Source of the DNA: an uncultured Bacilli bacterium
Lineage (GTDB): Bacteria > Bacillota_I > Bacilli_A > RF39 > UBA660
Length of the DNA: 64,000 nt
Direction of reading: 5' to 3'
NCBI GenBank assembly: GCA_934098435.1
Contig: CAKOOV010000002.1
Coordinates: 22,680 to 86,679, forward strand
Under the pieces are notes generated by a model that ran no database searches, was not told where the DNA came from, and was given only the letters and a program-made list of their open reading frames with translations. Positions 13,876 through 20,778 of this stretch are shown here, one piece after another. Position numbers and translations under genes: made by a program. Positions within the stretch are counted from its first letter, which is position 1, and every line of letters starts with the position of its first letter.

Positions 13876-15621
13876 CTATTTCTTATCCTCTATTTGTTTT
13901 TCTAACATAGATTTAAACTCTTCTAATGTTACAGTAGTACTATCATCACTACCAAACTTACGATAAGTAATAGTATTATTATCCCTTTCATTATTACCAA
14001 GTACTAAAGTATATGGTATCTTCTTAGTTTGAGACTCTCTAATCTTATATCCCATCTTTTCATCTCTAGAATCCAATTCAACTCTAAATTCATCACTTCT
14101 AAGTTCTTCAAGAACCTTATTAGCATACTCTAAATGATATTCATTATTAACTGGAATAATATTTATTTGTACTGGACTAAGCCATAATGGAAAAGCACCT
14201 GCATAATGTTCAATTAAAATACCGATAAATCTTTCTATTGATCCATAAATAACCCTATGAAGCATAACAGGTCTCTTTTTAGAACCATCCTTATCAATAT
14301 AAACCAAATCAAATCTTTCAGGTAAATTCATATCAAGCTGAATAGTACCACATTGCCATACTCTTCCCAAAGAATCTTTAATATGAAAGTCTAGCTTAGG
14401 TCCATAGAAAGCTCCGTCACCAGGATTAATCTTACATTCATGACCAGCCTTATTACAAGCATCCTGCAATGCTTTTTCTGATTTATTCCAGATTTCCAAA
14501 TCACCAATATATTTTTCTTCAGGTCTTGTTGATAATTCAATATCATAAGTTAATCCAAATATTTTATACATTCTATCAATAAAATTAATTAATCTTATAA
14601 CCTCTTCTTCTATTTGATCAGGTCTCATAAAAATATGAGCATCATCTTGAGTAAAAGTTCTTACTCTAAATAAACCATTTAAAGCTCCAGAAGCTTCATG
14701 TCTATGTACTTGTCCTAGTTCTCCTATTCTAAGAGGTAAATCTTTATATGAATGTAAAGAATTTTTATATACTAACATTCCACCAGGACAATTCATAGGT
14801 TTAATAGCAAACACTTTATCATCTATCTCACTAGTATACATATTTTCTCTATAATTATACCAATGACCTGATAACTCCCATAATTCTTTATTTAACATAA
14901 TAGGAGTCTTAACAAATTGATATCCTTCTTTAGTATGTTCTCTATACCAAAAATTTTCAAGTTCATTTCTTAGTATCATTCCTTTAGGCAAGAAGAAAGG
15001 AAATCCAGGTCCATATTCACTTATCATAAATAATTCCAATTCTTTACCCAATTTCTTATGATCTCTTTTTTTCGCTTCCTCAAGAAAATCTAAATGTTCT
15101 TTTAATTCTTCTTCACTTCTAAAACATACTCCATATATTCTCTGAAGCATCTTATTATTGGCGTCTCCCTTCCAATAAGCACCACTTACCTTAAGTAATT
15201 TAAAATATTTTAATTCCTTTACAGTATCAACATGAGGTCCTCTACAAAGATCAGTAAAATCTCCTTGTGTATAACAAGATATTACCGTTTCATTCTCATC
15301 CATTCTACTAATTAAATCTATTTTATATGGATCATCATGGAACATTTCTAAAGCCTCATCTTTAGATATTTCATGTCTTACAATCCTTTTACCATCCTTA
15401 GCAATCTTCTTCATTTCTTTTTCAATTTTAGGCAAATCCTCTTCTTTAATAACATCTTCTCCCAAGTCAATATCATAATAGAAGCCATCCTCTATTACAG
15501 GACCTACCCAAAATTTAGCATTAGGATATAAATGCTTTACAGCTTGTGCAAGTAAATGTGCACAAGAATGATTTAATTTACTTAAATCTTCATTTTCTTT
15601 AATATTTACCATATTTACCAT
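13876..15621 (-). CDS. thrS: threonyl-tRNA synthetase lacking the N-terminal TGS domain
   Basis: Begins at HSCAHLLAQ (N2 editing-domain start); class II catalytic and anticodon-binding domains present; in-frame stop 10 codons upstream of the ATG. Confidence 0.9.
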   Translation of the reverse strand: MVNMVNIKENEDLSKLNHSCAHLLAQAVKHLYPNAKFWVGPVIEDGFYYDIDLGEDVIKEEDLPKIEKEMKKIAKDGKRIVRHEISKDEALEMFHDDPYKIDLISRMDENETVISCYTQGDFTDLCRGPHVDTVKELKYFKLLKVSGAYWKGDANNKMLQRIYGVCFRSEEELKEHLDFLEEAKKRDHKKLGKELELFMISEYGPGFPFFLPKGMILRNELENFWYREHTKEGYQFVKTPIMLNKELWELSGHWYNYRENMYTSEIDDKVFAIKPMNCPGGMLVYKNSLHSYKDLPLRIGELGQVHRHEASGALNGLFRVRTFTQDDAHIFMRPDQIEEEVIRLINFIDRMYKIFGLTYDIELSTRPEEKYIGDLEIWNKSEKALQDACNKAGHECKINPGDGAFYGPKLDFHIKDSLGRVWQCGTIQLDMNLPERFDLVYIDKDGSKKRPVMLHRVIYGSIERFIGILIEHYAGAFPLWLSPVQINIIPVNNEYHLEYANKVLEELRSDEFRVELDSRDEKMGYKIRESQTKKIPYTLVLGNNERDNNTITYRKFGSDDSTTVTLEEFKSMLEKQIEDKK

Positions 15622-15916
15622 TCCTTTCCTTTGATTTCCTTTTCTTATTCATCTTCCTAATCTTAGTTTCTTTCTTAATTTCTCTTCTATATCCAAAACC
15701 ATCATTATCATAATAATGATCATTATTAACATAAATATTATACCTCATTCTAATATATCCATCTAATATTCTAATAGAATCAGAATTAGCACCGAACCAT
15801 CTTAATTCCTCTCTTAATTCTAATAATTCACTCAAATTCAAATCTAAAACACTTAAATACCATAAATAATCTCTATTACCCTGTACCTCTACTGGTACAT
15901 ATCCTTTAATATCCAT
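15599..15916 (-). CDS. 105-aa upstream ORF between the T-box terminator and thrS, unknown function, Lys-rich C-terminus
   Basis: Strong RBS AUAGGAGGUUAGU-AUG immediately after the T-box terminator; 23-nt overlap with thrS start in a different frame. Confidence 0.45.
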   Translation of the reverse strand: MDIKGYVPVEVQGNRDYLWYLSVLDLNLSELLELREELRWFGANSDSIRILDGYIRMRYNIYVNNDHYYDNDGFGYRREIKKETKIRKMNKKRKSKERNGKYGKY

Positions 15917-15945: not shown

Positions 15946-16135
15946 CTTAAAGGAGAGAATACATCTCGGTACCATCCTTATTTGGTCTTAATTATGATAA
16001 CGGTTTTACCCGGTAATCTCTTTCGAGTACACTCAAAGGTAGTAATTATATATCCCTATTATTAGTTTACACCAACCACTAACTCTCTATAAATAAAATA
16101 TATATAATCATGTCCTTCTCATTGCTTTGAATATG
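15946..16135 (-). promoter_or_regulatory. T-box riboswitch leader (threonine specifier) with intrinsic terminator
   Basis: T-box sequence AAUAAGGAUGGUACCGAG (plus 15965..15982); ACU ACC in the specifier region; AGAGAG stem I motif; terminator AAGACCA...UGGUCUU plus U7 at 15946..16000. Confidence 0.8.
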
Positions 16136-16140
16136 AATAT

Positions 16141-16169
16141 ATTATATGACTATTTCTTTTTTTTGTCAA
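16141..16169 (-). promoter_or_regulatory. sigma-A promoter for the thrS leader (-35 TTGACA, 17-nt spacer, -10 TATAAT)
   Basis: Reverse complement of 16164..16169 is TTGACA and of 16141..16146 is TATAAT. Confidence 0.7.
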
Positions 16170-16172
16170 TAA

Positions 16173-16469
16173 CTATCTATTAATAATATCAATATTTGTA
16201 TAATCAGAATTAACATATTCAACTAATAAAGGTATATTAAACTTTGATATTCTCTTAATAAATTGTTCAAACAATATAGTAAATATATCAATTCTATATA
16301 TTAGTAAATCATCAATAACATTAATACCTATACTTTGCATATAATTAATAATTTTTAAAGCATCATCTTCATTACATGATAAATTAAATAATATCGCTTC
16401 ATTATTATTCTTCATCATCTCAATCAATGTACTATCACTTATATTTACCCTCTTTAAGAAATCAATCAT
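16173..16469 (-). CDS. hypothetical protein (98 aa), last gene of the four-gene orphan operon
   Basis: 4-nt ATGA overlap with the upstream 613-aa gene. Confidence 0.55.
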   Translation of the reverse strand: MIDFLKRVNISDSTLIEMMKNNNEAILFNLSCNEDDALKIINYMQSIGINVIDDLLIYRIDIFTILFEQFIKRISKFNIPLLVEYVNSDYTNIDIINR

Positions 16470-18307
16470 CTTCTAGCTACCCCTCTCAAATCCTTACCAT
16501 ATACTTTTTCTAGACAATCTTCTATATTTCTATATTGTTCTTCAGTTAAAATACTATTTTTACATATAGCATATTTTATTGCTCCCAAAGTACCTGCCAT
16601 ACGATTCTTAATTAAAGTTTCATAAATTCTAAGTACCTTATATCTAGAAATTATTACACCATTAAAATTATATCTTAAATCATCCATCTTATACTCTTCT
16701 ACTTTTTGAATAAAATAATTATTATAAGCAAGAATTATAGGGCCTGCATTTCTATTACTATTTACAACATCATCAAATCTAGAATCAAATGTAGGAATAT
16801 ATTGCCCTACTGATTCAACTTTATTGCTATCATTTAAATTAAATTCATTATTCTTATCATTAGAAATTGAACCCATAAATTGAACCTTCTGTGTTCTTCT
16901 CTTACTATAAATATCTTTATTCATTTGACTAGCTTTAACTATACGATAAAACATCAAATCATCACTTCTTTTATTAACATATGAGAAATTAGATAAAATA
17001 TATTCGTAGCAGCCAACCTCAATAAACTGATCAATTGAAGATAAAGGATCAACAGCCTGAAATGATGACAAAGTATTCTTATATATTTCTGAAGGTATTT
17101 TATAAAAATCAAAACTATCAAAATTTTCTTTTACTTTATTATAAGAAAGACAAAATACACTAGGACAATCTTTAATAATATTAGTAGGATCTATCCCTCT
17201 CGATATAAATAATTTCCTATTTTTAATATAATTATCATATGCTCCAGTTACATATTTTTTATCATCTGAATATAAACCATCTACTGTTTTCTTTTTGCCA
17301 CCAGATCTACTATTATAGTAAGCACGTTTACCATTAATAAATAACGATGGAAAATTTAAATACTTATTTAATAATTCAGTTAAAGAAACATTATAACTAT
17401 TACCTTCATTATCAATATATTTATTACAAGTACAATCATCCTTTAAATTACTCATAATACTTGATACTATATCCCCATTAGAATGTAATAATATCTGAAC
17501 TAGCTTACTACTATAACCTTTAATATATAAAGATACCCCGTTATCACTAAATACCCTCAAAATATCATTTATAGTAGACAAATTACCATACTTAAGTAAT
17601 TGTACTTTGTCTTTATTTTTAAAATCATCGAAATTATAATTATATTTATCAAATAAATCAAAAACATCAGATTCAGATAAATTAGTTTCTTCTAACAAAA
17701 TAACCTCTTCATCATCTTTATTTACCTTTATATTATTAATTAATTCCAACGATTTCAAAGATATATCTTGAATAATAGTCATTTGTTTATCAATAGATAA
17801 ATCAGATAATTTCAAATATAAAGCTATATTATCAATATCTAAAGAAGTTAAATAACCATTTTCACTATATAAATTACTAATCTTACCAATTAAATTTTCA
17901 ATAATTTCTATAGTACTTTTTCTGTCTTTAATATCTTCATTATTATCTATTAATAATTCTTTCTTACCATTCAAATCATTTATTATTCTATTAGTAATAT
18001 CCACTATTTCATTTTTTTGTTCCGTAGTTAAAGGAAAATAACTTAACATTGACAATTTTTTATACATTTCTAATTTATTAATAATATTTATATCAAAATC
18101 AGATAAGACTTTCTTTAACTCTTCTATAGATAAATCACTTATTTTTATCGGATTATCTAATACTGAAAATAAATTATTTAATAAACTATTAAAAGAAAAT
18201 AATAATTTTAATTCTATATTATTTATATCCTTCAATTGACTATTTTTAACTAGTTTTAAAGTATTTATTATTTGTTCTTCCATTTTATCACTTCCTAATT
18301 TTATCAA
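16466..18307 (-). CDS. hypothetical 613-aa protein, N-terminal half coiled-coil-like (I/L/K/E/D/N-rich), no recognisable catalytic motif
   Basis: Long ORF in AT-rich DNA; overlaps neighbours (20 nt and 4 nt). Confidence 0.65.
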   Translation of the reverse strand: MIKLGSDKMEEQIINTLKLVKNSQLKDINNIELKLLFSFNSLLNNLFSVLDNPIKISDLSIEELKKVLSDFDINIINKLEMYKKLSMLSYFPLTTEQKNEIVDITNRIINDLNGKKELLIDNNEDIKDRKSTIEIIENLIGKISNLYSENGYLTSLDIDNIALYLKLSDLSIDKQMTIIQDISLKSLELINNIKVNKDDEEVILLEETNLSESDVFDLFDKYNYNFDDFKNKDKVQLLKYGNLSTINDILRVFSDNGVSLYIKGYSSKLVQILLHSNGDIVSSIMSNLKDDCTCNKYIDNEGNSYNVSLTELLNKYLNFPSLFINGKRAYYNSRSGGKKKTVDGLYSDDKKYVTGAYDNYIKNRKLFISRGIDPTNIIKDCPSVFCLSYNKVKENFDSFDFYKIPSEIYKNTLSSFQAVDPLSSIDQFIEVGCYEYILSNFSYVNKRSDDLMFYRIVKASQMNKDIYSKRRTQKVQFMGSISNDKNNEFNLNDSNKVESVGQYIPTFDSRFDDVVNSNRNAGPIILAYNNYFIQKVEEYKMDDLRYNFNGVIISRYKVLRIYETLIKNRMAGTLGAIKYAICKNSILTEEQYRNIEDCLEKVYGKDLRGVARR

Positions 18308-20210
18308 TATCTTCTAAAGGAACTTCCGGATTTTTAGATAACTTATCATAAATAGCATATGCATCATCAATCAAGCCAAAAACCTCACTTTTACTCGAAG
18401 AATCAAAATCACTATTAAATAAATTAAATACATGTCTTATATTAACTATCTCACGAGCAATTCGACTATTAAAATATGCAGGTACCCTATCACTATCATT
18501 AAGTTTTTCACGACAACCAATAATTAATAAAACAGAAGGATTATCTATGCCATATGCTTCACTCAATATTTCTTTGTTTTTAGCGGATACTGATAATTTA
18601 ACATAAGCAACTCTACCATCACCACTTCTATTTCTATATGCCTTTACCTCTTTAGTATAATCAGGTATTTTTCTTTCAGAACTAGGTTGAAGTTCCCTAC
18701 TTCCTAATATATCTTTAGATTGATAAAATTCATATCTTTTAAGATTATGTAATATACTTACAATATTATTCATAACAGACTTTTGTTCTTTAAGTATTAT
18801 CTTTTGATCATCATAAACACAATAATTACCATCCTCTAGTGGTAAAAATAATATTATTGAATTATCCTTATTCACTTGTTCTTCTAAAGGTTCTTCTGTA
18901 ATATTTCTTTCAACATTTAATACTTCATATTCTCTCTTTAATCTAGTTATTAAACTTATTACATCAGCCTTTTGACTATTTAAACAACTATTTATATCAT
19001 CTTGTAATCCTTCATTTACATATTCTTTTTCATTAGCACGATATTCCAAATATTCATCAAAAGATTCTTTTAACTTTCTAAATAATTCCAAACACATTAC
19101 ATAATTTACAGAAAACCTCTCACTAATTTCAGCAGTATTAGTATCACCACCTTTAATAAGTTCTAAAATACTATGTATCATATTTTTATCAACTTCATTA
19201 AACTTATCATAAGCATCAAACTCTAATTCCCCTAAAGATAAATACTTTTCTATTTCTTTTTTTTCTTCTTGAGTAAAATCATCTACTTGTGAAACAAATT
19301 GAGACTGTTCTTCTTTCTTATATTCATGATTAAATATTTCAAGAATATAATTAAATATTATCATTATTTCATTTCTGTGTTCTTTAAAACTAGGTAATAA
19401 ATTTTCTTTTAAATCCTCTATAATAAGATTTAACTTATCTGGAGATGAATCATATACCTTAATCCTTGTATCTAAACTATAATCCCCCTTAAGTAAATCA
19501 ACTAATGAATCATGTACCAAGGTTTTACCTTTTTCATAATTATCAATAATAAACATTATTTTATCATAAATATCTAATTCATCAGCACTTAAAGAAAGTT
19601 CATCTTGCTTATTATCATAACCATCATTTTCTACTTTATTATCTTCATCTATTACTCTTTGTATTCTTTCAGAATTCTCACTTATAATAATTTCTTGTTT
19701 GCGTTGATTCAATTTTCTTAATTGTTCTGCATAAGAAATACTATCTTTAGAAAATAACAATGTTAAATTATACTTTACACTTTCATCTAAACTAGTATTA
19801 TTTAAAAATATAAAAAATCTATTTAATTCATCCTTATTTAAATGTCTAACAATTTTACCATCATTAATTAAACTCAAATATTCATAATAATCATCTAATT
19901 CATTATTAGAATCCAAATTCAATTTATAAATTTTCATTTCCAAAGTTCTAGAGGCGCTTAATAAAATCTGTTTCAACTCTTTCAAATAATCTTTCGCCGC
20001 TTCAACCTGAGGAATATTATCATCATTAAATAAACGTATTATACTTATTGCTTCCATGATTTTATTAACTTTACTAGTAATATCTTCATTAGGATAAATA
20101 AATGACAATACATTCTTTAAATCATCAACATTCATCTTTTCAAATTCATAATCACCAATTACCTTATCAAGAAAATCAATATTCCTCTTTAATTCCATCA
20201 AATCATTCAT
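18288..20210 (-). CDS. hypothetical 640-aa protein, mostly helical/acidic; the C-terminal about 100 aa weakly resemble a RelE/ParE-like fold (YRNRSGDGRVAYVKL...VLLIIGCREK)
   Basis: Long ORF; translationally coupled to the downstream gene. Confidence 0.65.
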   Translation of the reverse strand: MNDLMELKRNIDFLDKVIGDYEFEKMNVDDLKNVLSFIYPNEDITSKVNKIMEAISIIRLFNDDNIPQVEAAKDYLKELKQILLSASRTLEMKIYKLNLDSNNELDDYYEYLSLINDGKIVRHLNKDELNRFFIFLNNTSLDESVKYNLTLLFSKDSISYAEQLRKLNQRKQEIIISENSERIQRVIDEDNKVENDGYDNKQDELSLSADELDIYDKIMFIIDNYEKGKTLVHDSLVDLLKGDYSLDTRIKVYDSSPDKLNLIIEDLKENLLPSFKEHRNEIMIIFNYILEIFNHEYKKEEQSQFVSQVDDFTQEEKKEIEKYLSLGELEFDAYDKFNEVDKNMIHSILELIKGGDTNTAEISERFSVNYVMCLELFRKLKESFDEYLEYRANEKEYVNEGLQDDINSCLNSQKADVISLITRLKREYEVLNVERNITEEPLEEQVNKDNSIILFLPLEDGNYCVYDDQKIILKEQKSVMNNIVSILHNLKRYEFYQSKDILGSRELQPSSERKIPDYTKEVKAYRNRSGDGRVAYVKLSVSAKNKEILSEAYGIDNPSVLLIIGCREKLNDSDRVPAYFNSRIAREIVNIRHVFNLFNSDFDSSSKSEVFGLIDDAYAIYDKLSKNPEVPLEDIDKIRK

Positions 20211-20220
20211 TATTTATCAC

Positions 20221-20694
20221 CTATAATATTTTTTTCTTGTTATATGTATTTTCTATTTCTTTATATATATCAATAAAAGCATCACAAGAAGCATTATAAA
20301 AATTAATATTTATATTTAATAATGCTTGTAGTTCAGTAATCGTTCTCTTTAAATACGTAATATAACCATCAAAAATATAATCATCATATTTAAGTATTTC
20401 TTCCATCTCCACCAATCTATCATTTACATATTTAATAATCTTTTCATCATTACATTTTTTCAAAGCAGTTTTAATAATATTTATCTCTTTCTTTATTCTT
20501 TCATTATCAGACATTTTCTCATTCTTAACAGTATATACGTCATCCTCATATCCTTGTAATTTCTTATAATCAATTTTAGATATCTTAGAATAATTAGAGT
20601 ATAATCTTAATAATATTTTCAAATTAATATCATTACTATTAGTAGAATTTAAATAGTCCTTTATAATATCCATCTTAAGATTTGTATCTTCCAT
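20221..20694 (-). CDS. hypothetical protein (about 157 aa from MEDTNLK), first gene of the orphan operon
   Basis: RBS AGAGGTGG before ATG at 20694; own promoter upstream. Confidence 0.55.
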   Translation of the reverse strand: MEDTNLKMDIIKDYLNSTNSNDINLKILLRLYSNYSKISKIDYKKLQGYEDDVYTVKNEKMSDNERIKKEINIIKTALKKCNDEKIIKYVNDRLVEMEEILKYDDYIFDGYITYLKRTITELQALLNININFYNASCDAFIDIYKEIENTYNKKKIL

Positions 20695-20719
20695 AATACC
20701 ACCTCTATAATCTGTCAAA

Positions 20720-20748
20720 ATTATACCATATTCTAGTAAAATATTCAA
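20720..20748 (-). promoter_or_regulatory. sigma-A promoter of the four-gene operon (-35 TTGAAT, 17-nt spacer, -10 TATAAT)
   Basis: Reverse complement of 20743..20748 is TTGAAT and of 20720..20725 is TATAAT. Confidence 0.6.
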
Positions 20749-20749
20749 T

Positions 20750-20778
20750 AAAAAAAGAACAACATACTTTGTTCTTTA
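20750..20778 (-). terminator. rho-independent terminator of glyQS
   Basis: AAGAACAA-aguaug-UUGUUCUU followed by UUUUU. Confidence 0.7.

Follow-up and report, generated by a model that had tools for sequence, protein, structure and literature searches.

What is the cassette of four genes, here named g1, g2, g3 and g4, that lies between glyQS and the T-box leader of thrS in an uncultured low-GC Bacilli bacterium: an accessory island that was inserted between two aminoacyl-tRNA synthetase loci, or a resident part of the genome? The question is posed by a stretch of 64,000 nucleotides (nt) of contig CAKOOV010000002.1 (positions 22,680 to 86,679; this whole stretch is called the window), for which a preliminary description had put forward an inserted orphan operon of large helical proteins. 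Comparison with related loci (labelled L001-L090) shows that the cassette is native, vertically inherited and fast-evolving, and that it is common to a broad group of uncultured low-GC gut Bacilli. Hence, it is very probable that we are dealing with a native conserved cassette and not with a defence island. The analysis is based on database searches, predicted structures (AF2; confidence given as the predicted local distance difference test, pLDDT) and profile-profile comparison (hhalign). The four head-to-tail open reading frames (ORFs) are confirmed as co-directional genes, all on the minus strand, between glyQS and the thrS T-box; sizes are in amino acids (aa).

20694..20221, minus strand: g1, 157 aa, ATG start behind a AGAGGTGG ribosome-binding site
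20210..18288, minus strand: g2, 640 aa
18283..16466, minus strand: g3, 605 aa
16469..16173, minus strand: g4, 98 aa
22155..20776, minus strand: glyQS, upstream of the cassette

The sizes first given for g1, g2 and g4 (157, 640 and 98 aa) stand, while that of g3 (613 aa, from a TTG start giving a 20-nt overlap with g2) was a longest-ORF artefact. Specifically, the start codon of every homologue corresponds to ATG 18283, with MEEQII or MEDKII as N-terminus, and g3 is therefore a protein of 605 aa that starts after a 4-nt gap behind the g2 stop codon. The other overlap first described, of 4 nt between the g3 stop and the g4 start (ATGA), is retained. That these are spurious ORFs is ruled out by ratios of nonsynonymous to synonymous substitution (dN/dS) below 1 together with conservation across species. 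As first described, the two large proteins are rich in I, L, K, E, D and N, and their N-terminal halves are helical in the AF2 models. All four are soluble and acidic, a membrane segment was found in none of them, and a net-basic charge is confined to two parts, the g2 end domain and the C-terminal half of g3.

The proteins are far from being orphans. Word-indexed protein searches gave 43 database relatives of g2 and 36 of g3, with metagenomic relatives of both at about 90-95% and about 40-50% identity (a further word-indexed search with a deep alignment gave no relatives beyond those already found). An exhaustive HMMER search with g3, the anchor family of the cassette, covered 1.84 billion representatives and returned 480 clusters at 50% identity with E ≤ 1e-3 and 309 with E ≤ 1e-10, nearly all of 560-700 aa; one cluster has 667 member sequences, and one of its members was found on 517 contigs. 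A scan of one genome per GTDB species gave 22 loci, all from gut metagenome-assembled genomes (MAGs) designated 'uncultured Bacilli', 'uncultured Tenericutes', 'Firmicutes bacterium CAG:321' or similar, and a metagenome scan gave 52 more; one homologue sits on a contig of 1.4 Mb. About 80 loci, drawn from gut MAGs and metagenomes and representing many species of uncultured low-GC Bacilli, have the genes in the order g1/g2/g3/g4, which is conserved in L001-L026 and L027-L078. Among the first 27 loci (window included) g4 follows g3 in 27 of 27, as it does in nearly all later ones, a g2-like gene precedes g3, and a g1-like gene precedes g2 in most, with g1 homologues of 147-170 aa directly upstream of g2 in 17 of the 27. 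The g2 of the window is homologous over nearly its full length to the distant g2-like proteins (hhalign probabilities of 98.7% and 92.4%) and g1 of the window is linked to proteins of 138-161 aa in more distant loci (86%); the L019 group and L022 have no g1. Literature searches gave no description of such a cassette, and in the cluster look-up no source has named any member. The proteins belong to no described family, and to this extent the earlier term 'undescribed system' was apt.

The genes that flank the cassette differ from clade to clade:

window: glyQS / thrS
L001 type: sensor kinase / thrS
L019 group: ftsA-ftsZ upstream, rpsO-pnp downstream
L017: rpoA-rplQ
L009: murA..rpmE
L018: rpsL
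L022: tgt
L078: yqeH...dnaG-rpoD-trmK
L077: ackA

That the four genes are an inserted island is contradicted by the recurrence of their order in about 80 loci beside such unrelated housekeeping genes, and by two properties of the cassette itself, its native GC content at third codon positions (GC3) and its presence on 18 of 18 long conspecific contigs (those that carry an identical copy of the 105-aa ORF described below). The cassette has a GC3 of 0.12-0.18 and its neighbours 0.14-0.17, the lower total GC of the cassette stemming from codon positions 1 and 2, and recent horizontal transfer was rejected on the strength of these values. The divergence of the cassette tracks that of ThrS, such that ThrS identities of 99.5, 66 and 57% are matched by g3 identities of 90, 47 and 23%, and of the four proteins g4 has diverged least (64% identity, against 66% for ThrS). 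Against a relative at 95% identity, dN/dS is 0.19-0.36 for the cassette (g1 0.19, g2 0.28, g3 0.36) and 0.02-0.05 for the two synthetase genes. Neither tblastn searches of phages and plasmids nor a scan of IMG/VR gave a relative of the cassette, which with the native GC3 and the 18 conspecific contigs leaves it without the marks of a mobile island.

In the clade of the L019 group the cassette lies directly after ftsA-ftsZ (L019, L021, L023, L025, L026, L071 and L073), and this placement, together with the size of g2 and g3, their long helical or coiled-coil N-terminal halves and the possession of paralogous pairing domains (see below) of a kind typical of structural heteromers, would fit a lineage-specific scaffold in the cytoskeleton, cell division or chromosome organisation. 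However, the ftsAZ adjacency is confined to this one clade and the neighbours in other clades are unrelated, no match was obtained to EzrA, DivIVA, SepF, ZapA, SMC/Mks or any other scaffold family that is known, the proteins lack a membrane anchor and loss alleles exist. We therefore regard such a scaffold as unlikely. In L009-L011, ORFs resembling SpoIID and SpoIIID were read by eye from their N-termini a few genes downstream of the cassette (L009 12697-14651), which suggests that at least part of the lineage may form spores.

The domain structure of the cassette is clearest in g3 and g4:

17714..18283, minus strand: g3 N-terminal helical domain, residues 1-190, a helical bundle with AF2 pLDDT 82-93
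17384..17701, minus strand: g3 helical repeat module, copy 1, residues 195-300, AF2 pLDDT about 90
17249..17332, minus strand: g3 Lys/Arg/Gly-rich loop, about residues 318-345, consensus GKRxYKRRxxGxxGPxGGG
16919..17257, minus strand: g3 helical repeat module, copy 2, residues 343-455, motif IDQFIExG (D418..E422)
16469..16726, minus strand: g3 C-terminal conserved domain, residues 520-605, motif YNFNGVIISRxKVLR
16173..16469, minus strand: g4, acidic helical protein, third copy of the g3 repeat module

Residues 195-300 and 343-455 of g3 and the whole of g4 are three copies of one helical module, with pairwise hhalign probabilities of 71-80% (copy 1 against copy 2, 80%; copy 1 against g4, 79%; g4 against g3 residues 198-255, 70.6%), and all other pairs of segments, which served as the control, stayed below 4%. 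Disorder is predicted for the loop that separates the two g3 copies (pLDDT below 50 at residues 325-342). Among 128 g3 sequences S546, K549 and R552 are invariant; E422 is likewise invariant in the family, and D418, Y428 and Y538 are nearly so. The C-terminal domain contains an invariant S-R-x-K-x-x-R. For this domain AF2 with a 24-sequence alignment gave low confidence.

The second large protein, g2, is helical and very acidic, with a net charge of -39, and is preceded by g1, a soluble helical protein of 157 aa that is likewise of no described family. Two regions of g2 can be delimited:

19737..20210, minus strand: helical domain at the N-terminus of g2, here about residues 1-158, a paralogue of the g3 N-terminal domain
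18486..18872, minus strand: small alpha/beta domain towards the C-terminus of g2 (about residues 447-575), whose pattern resembles RelE/ParE/Gp49, an assignment that stays sub-threshold

In their first 180-190 residues or so, g2 and g3 are paralogues of each other (82% probability and E 1.1e-5 in hhalign, A2 against A5), and the g3 hidden Markov model also matches g2-like ORFs in L012-15, L017, L019 and others. The AF2 pLDDT of the g2 N-domain is about 87-91 for residues 1-60, about 78-91 up to residue 90 and about 52-78 beyond residue 100. The g2 of the window lacks 24 N-terminal codons of a 664-aa form, the loss having occurred between two stretches that contain ELK (window 20139-20210, minus strand, compared with L004 10001-10144). 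Of 18 long conspecific contigs, 12 carry the 640-aa and 6 the 664-aa form, and the shorter form is therefore a common natural allele. It should be noted that g2 is split into two ORFs in L031 (7850-10001), L042 (840-2852) and L057 (6988-9002); in L031 the split is due to a 1-nt indel relative to L030, and all three could be either sequencing errors or pseudogenes.

The preliminary description had seen a RelE/ParE-like pattern at the C-terminus of g2, and this is still no more than a sub-threshold lead. The compact end domain of g2-like proteins in the L019 group and L078 reads ...LKGLEELKPNSKGRQARVVYTRLRDNIFGIIGLFGKKAD, and distant g2 homologues, and these only, match Gp49 (E 0.0079, 4.7e-4, and 3.2e-4 at 21.1 bits). 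The best score is this one of 21.1 bits versus a cut-off of 23.9, and 16.7 and 14.1 bits were obtained as well. The C-terminus in the window carries long insertions, its only Pfam match is MqsR_toxin (E 0.2), and hhalign of the C-terminus alone against the compact forms gave 9% probability. In the AF2 model it has the order beta-alpha-alpha-beta-beta-(alpha)-beta, with a helix inserted between strands and a pLDDT below 60. PDB profile searches with two versions of the g2 C-terminus returned no RelE-type chain, and Foldseek of the g2 model against the PDB gave no match at E ≤ 0.001. A winged-helix end domain was also considered and is disfavoured, since the SmtB wing, the best of the weak PDB matches, was matched at E 0.39 and a RelE-type sheet accounts better for the conserved third strand. 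In clades that lack g1, an acidic ORF of 65-83 aa lies between the g2-like gene and g3 (L019 9166-9405, also L021, L023, L025, L026 and L077), which is where an antitoxin would follow a HigB-type toxin; Pfam searches with these ORFs of the L019-type loci gave no helix-turn-helix (HTH) or antitoxin match.

If the cassette itself is resident, what of the view that the space between two synthetase loci is a typical place for defence islands? It is correct for the interval and incorrect for the four genes themselves: in related strains this interval has taken up accessory and defence DNA, and g1-g4 are the resident framework and not the cargo. In L004 and L040 a PbeA-like helicase, an MzaA-like protein and a transposase-associated gene lie between glyQS and g1 (L004 4219-9361). 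In loci of the L001 type a WYL regulator and an HD_4/AAA_28 protein lie between g4 and thrS (L001 14207-16232), and L005 and L044 have more genes there. In L079 (9001-15000) an island with a complete Lamassu pair, LmuA/LmuB, has entered g3 itself to leave a g3(1-485)::PemK-domain fusion, while in L080 (1-6117) genes with HNH_2/CTD11, MC6/MC7 and DUF2326 domains adjoin a NERD::g3(390-605) fusion. These inserts served as positive controls for PADLOC, which gave E values of 1.7e-71 for LmuA, 2e-167 for LmuB, 1.7e-26 for WYL and 2e-17 for PbeA.

The insertions in L079 and L080, along with the deletion and hybrid alleles that follow, show that some strains can do without the complete cassette. In L072 (9805-10312) g1, g2 and g3 codons 1 to about 530 are lost and the 3' end of g3 is kept together with g4. 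In L086 (763-2274) an in-frame deletion fuses an upstream sensor-kinase gene to residue 394 of g3, with g4 again kept. In L088-L090 an in-frame hybrid, g2(1-197)::g3(208-607), is joined at the microhomology REE-V (L088 6001-7785) and swaps exactly the paralogous N-domain, giving a three-gene cassette (g1, hybrid, g4) that is present on 8 contigs.

These alleles also bear on whether g1-g4 might, after all, be a defence or toxin-antitoxin-like system of an undescribed kind, in which the RelE/Gp49-like end domain of g2 would be a toxin restrained by the rest of the complex. The sub-threshold Gp49 matches of the distant g2 homologues, the acidic ORFs at the antitoxin position after the g2-like gene in the L019 group and L077, the clustering of defence genes beside and inside the cassette, its fast evolution and the natural loss alleles are all compatible with this. 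Nevertheless, PADLOC-DB 2.0, which recognises the neighbouring inserts, gave no match at E ≤ 1 for any of the four proteins, and thus no known defence model, and the cassette has no phage, plasmid or viral relatives. Its fixed order across many species and its divergence in step with ThrS do not resemble the patchy distribution of defence systems; its GC3 is native, and it is present on all 18 long conspecific contigs. In addition, the acidic ORFs have no HTH match, the g2 C-terminus of the window is unlinked to the Gp49-like versions, and the hybrid allele persists on its 8 contigs in spite of having no g2 end domain. Hence, we consider a defence or toxin-antitoxin role to be improbable.

If it is not defence, what does the cassette do? 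As first described, none of the four proteins has a recognisable motif, and searches of Pfam, NCBIfam, PHROGs and PADLOC gave nothing above threshold. The Pfam search was extended to 15 g4 homologues, 14 g2 C-termini, consensus sequences and g1 homologues, which yielded only sub-threshold mTERF and Gp49 matches, and PDB profile searches with g4, the g2 C-terminus and the 128-sequence g3 alignment returned only designed helical proteins or chance matches. The two AF2 models gave no Foldseek match at E ≤ 0.001 in PDB, and neither did the g3 model in BFVD. The leads are below threshold. The best Pfam match of the g4 consensus is mTERF (PF02536; E 0.0023, 17.3 bits versus a cut-off of 23.1), which is matched by 1 of 15 g4 members individually (E 0.0052) and by neither g3 nor g4 of the window; the top sub-threshold Pfam matches for the g4 family are the three-helix domains mTERF, HHH_RecD2 and RecX. 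In the Foldseek search with g3, mTERF1-DNA and MTERF4 rank fourth and fifth with E about 1.

We now put forward a hypothetical model in which g1-g4 form one cytoplasmic complex, as the tight coupling of the genes, their fixed order and their shared modules would suggest. In this complex g2 and g3 would pair via their paralogous N-terminal helical domains of about 190 residues, and g4 would extend the repeat surface of g3 by adding a third copy to the two in g3 of an mTERF/RecX/helix-hairpin-helix-type module. These repeats, along with the Lys/Arg/Gly-rich loop and the basic S-R-x-K-x-x-R domain, may bind nucleic acid, in the form of RNA, the ribosome or the nucleoid, and g2 would contribute the small alpha/beta end domain, possibly with a RelE/Gp49-like fold. 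The pointers to nucleic acid are the sub-threshold mTERF, HHH_RecD2 and RecX matches, the rank of mTERF structures in Foldseek and, within g3, the Gly-rich basic loop, the S-R-x-K-x-x-R motif and the net-basic charge of the C-terminal half. Taken as a whole, the reading as a native, vertically inherited cassette that encodes a nucleic-acid-binding helical scaffold complex is one we favour tentatively, at somewhat short of an even chance, and the nucleic-acid binding by itself is doubtful. The most specific version, an unnamed complex that acts on RNA, the ribosome or the nucleoid by means of mTERF-like repeats in g3 and g4 and a RelE-fold domain in g2, all joined via the paralogous helical N-domains, and that is common to a whole uncultured gut lineage, with g3 as a recurrent landing site of defence islands, is unlikely.

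Several considerations count against the model of a nucleic-acid-binding scaffold complex. None of the similarities from which a function might be read reaches a curated threshold, the matches from Foldseek lack significance, and AF2 failed to fold the two most informative domains, the C-termini of g3 and g2. The proteins are acidic overall, g2 strongly so, which is unusual for nucleic-acid binders, and the formation of a complex is a prediction. Neighbours related to translation and replication are to be expected by chance in small genomes. Finally, the loci were found through g3 itself, and so the counts given above do not measure how universal the cassette is in the lineage.

How the cassette is expressed bears on a further explanation of its function. 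The elements between glyQS and g1 are as follows:

20749..20775, minus strand: glyQS intrinsic-terminator-like hairpin and T-run, AGAACAA-AGTATG-TTGTTCT, read from the sequence
20720..20748, minus strand: sigma-A-type promoter of the cassette, TTGAAT, 17 nt, TG-n-TATAAT (extended -10)

The promoter that had been described here, TTGAAT-17-TATAAT of the sigma-A type, does lie directly after the glyQS hairpin and T-run, and it has in addition the TG extension and is conserved in relatives. It gains weight only from this conservation, because such pairs of hexamers are no commoner in the region than in shuffled sequence (62 sites versus 62.5 expected, the chance level in AT-rich DNA). The TATGATATAAT box and an AGAGGTG ribosome-binding site are conserved before g1 in the window and in L001, L004 and L008, and L007 has a variant; the ThrS proteins of these relatives are 99.5% (L004) and about 63-66% (L001, L007, L008) identical to that of the window. 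L004 retains the TATGATATAAT box although 6 kilobases (kb) of foreign DNA part glyQS from g1, and a remnant of the glyQS hairpin also persists before g1 in L004 despite that insert. Were g1-g4 structural proteins of the spore, of the coat or of its morphogenesis in a spore-forming lineage, a promoter of the sigma-E, K, F or G type would be expected instead of the conserved sigma-A-like one with its extended -10. Coat proteins are typically fast-evolving, of low complexity and lineage-specific, a description that suits the cassette, and the SpoIID-like and SpoIIID-like ORFs downstream in L009-L011 point the same way. Such sporulation-gene neighbours are seen in one clade only, however, and no homology to SpoIVA, SpoVID, SafA or CotE was found, so that a sporulation role is, in our estimation, very unlikely.

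On the other side of the cassette no terminator was seen after g4, and the following elements are found:

16169..16141, minus strand: perfect TTGACA-17-TATAAT promoter, downstream of g4
16131..15948, minus strand: thrS T-box leader, RF00230, 88.7 bits, E 7.7e-20 (gathering score 93)
15599-15916, minus strand: conserved basic ORF of 105 aa with its own ribosome-binding site

The T-box that had been recognised before thrS is thus borne out by RF00230 at just under the gathering score, because of which a default Rfam scan of the whole window reports no RNA family. The 105-aa ORF lies between the T-box terminator and thrS, whose start it overlaps by 23 nt, and L001, L004, L007 and L008 have homologues of 82-105 aa at this position. 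It has no Pfam family on record, and a protein gene between a T-box and its synthetase is an unusual arrangement.

The organisms that carry the cassette are low-GC gut Bacilli with small genomes, seen in metagenomes only and abundant in human and animal guts, and a conserved, co-transcribed set of four proteins without family assignment is a well-defined piece of the biology of this lineage. Conserved hypothetical operons are common in uncultured lineages; the present one is abundant and well delimited. The families are new by exclusion, in that no known kind fits, rather than by virtue of a new mechanism. The domain map gives constructs that can be tested (the paralogous N-domains, the three repeat modules, the S-R-x-K-x-x-R motif and the possible RelE-like end domain), and the natural alleles with a hybrid gene, a deletion or an insertion offer genetic variants that already exist. 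Should the mTERF-like or RelE-like readings prove right, bacteria would here be using those folds in an unusual way, in a housekeeping context.

How, then, does the cassette compare with known systems? In Bacillus subtilis a dnaB-dnaI-ytxB-ytxC block is located upstream of thrS, a divergent form of which was considered for g1-g4 and rejected, as the genes differ in size, an ATPase is lacking and DnaB_2 is not matched. With EzrA, DivIVA/GpsB and SepF the proteins share solubility, a helical nature and, in one clade, a place next to ftsA-ftsZ, but no similarity of sequence or fold was detected, a membrane-binding element is lacking and the ftsAZ linkage is not general (EzrA, DivIVA, SepF and ZapA are absent from the Pfam and NCBIfam output for the four proteins and their homologues). 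A general link to ftsAZ was rejected on the same ground, being seen in one clade only. The resemblance to the Gp49/HigB type (PF05973) and to RelE/ParE lies in the C-termini of g2-like proteins, which have the pattern ...L(K/R)..ELR....G..aRVvY..L.d.i.gii..f.KKad and the predicted order beta-alpha-alpha-beta-beta-beta, and in the small ORF that follows in some clades as in higBA. In contrast to those mobile two-gene modules, the domain here belongs to a conserved chromosomal cassette, is preceded in the same polypeptide by about 450 residues of helical protein and has g3 as the gene next to its own, and no antitoxin is recognisable in the window. Because the scores fall short of membership in either family, g1-g4 are filed under neither RelE/ParE nor mTERF. 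The mTERF proteins are described as binders of nucleic acid that consist of degenerate helical repeats, each of about 30 aa (PMC4005652). Like them, g3 and g4 would be all-helical repeat proteins, g4 and two regions of g3 being copies of a degenerate module that follows the pattern L..(Y)G(I/F)....I. The cassette differs in that its three module copies, with scores below threshold, are split over two polypeptides, that an extra coiled-coil N-domain and a distinct C-terminal domain are present, and that it is bacterial rather than organellar.

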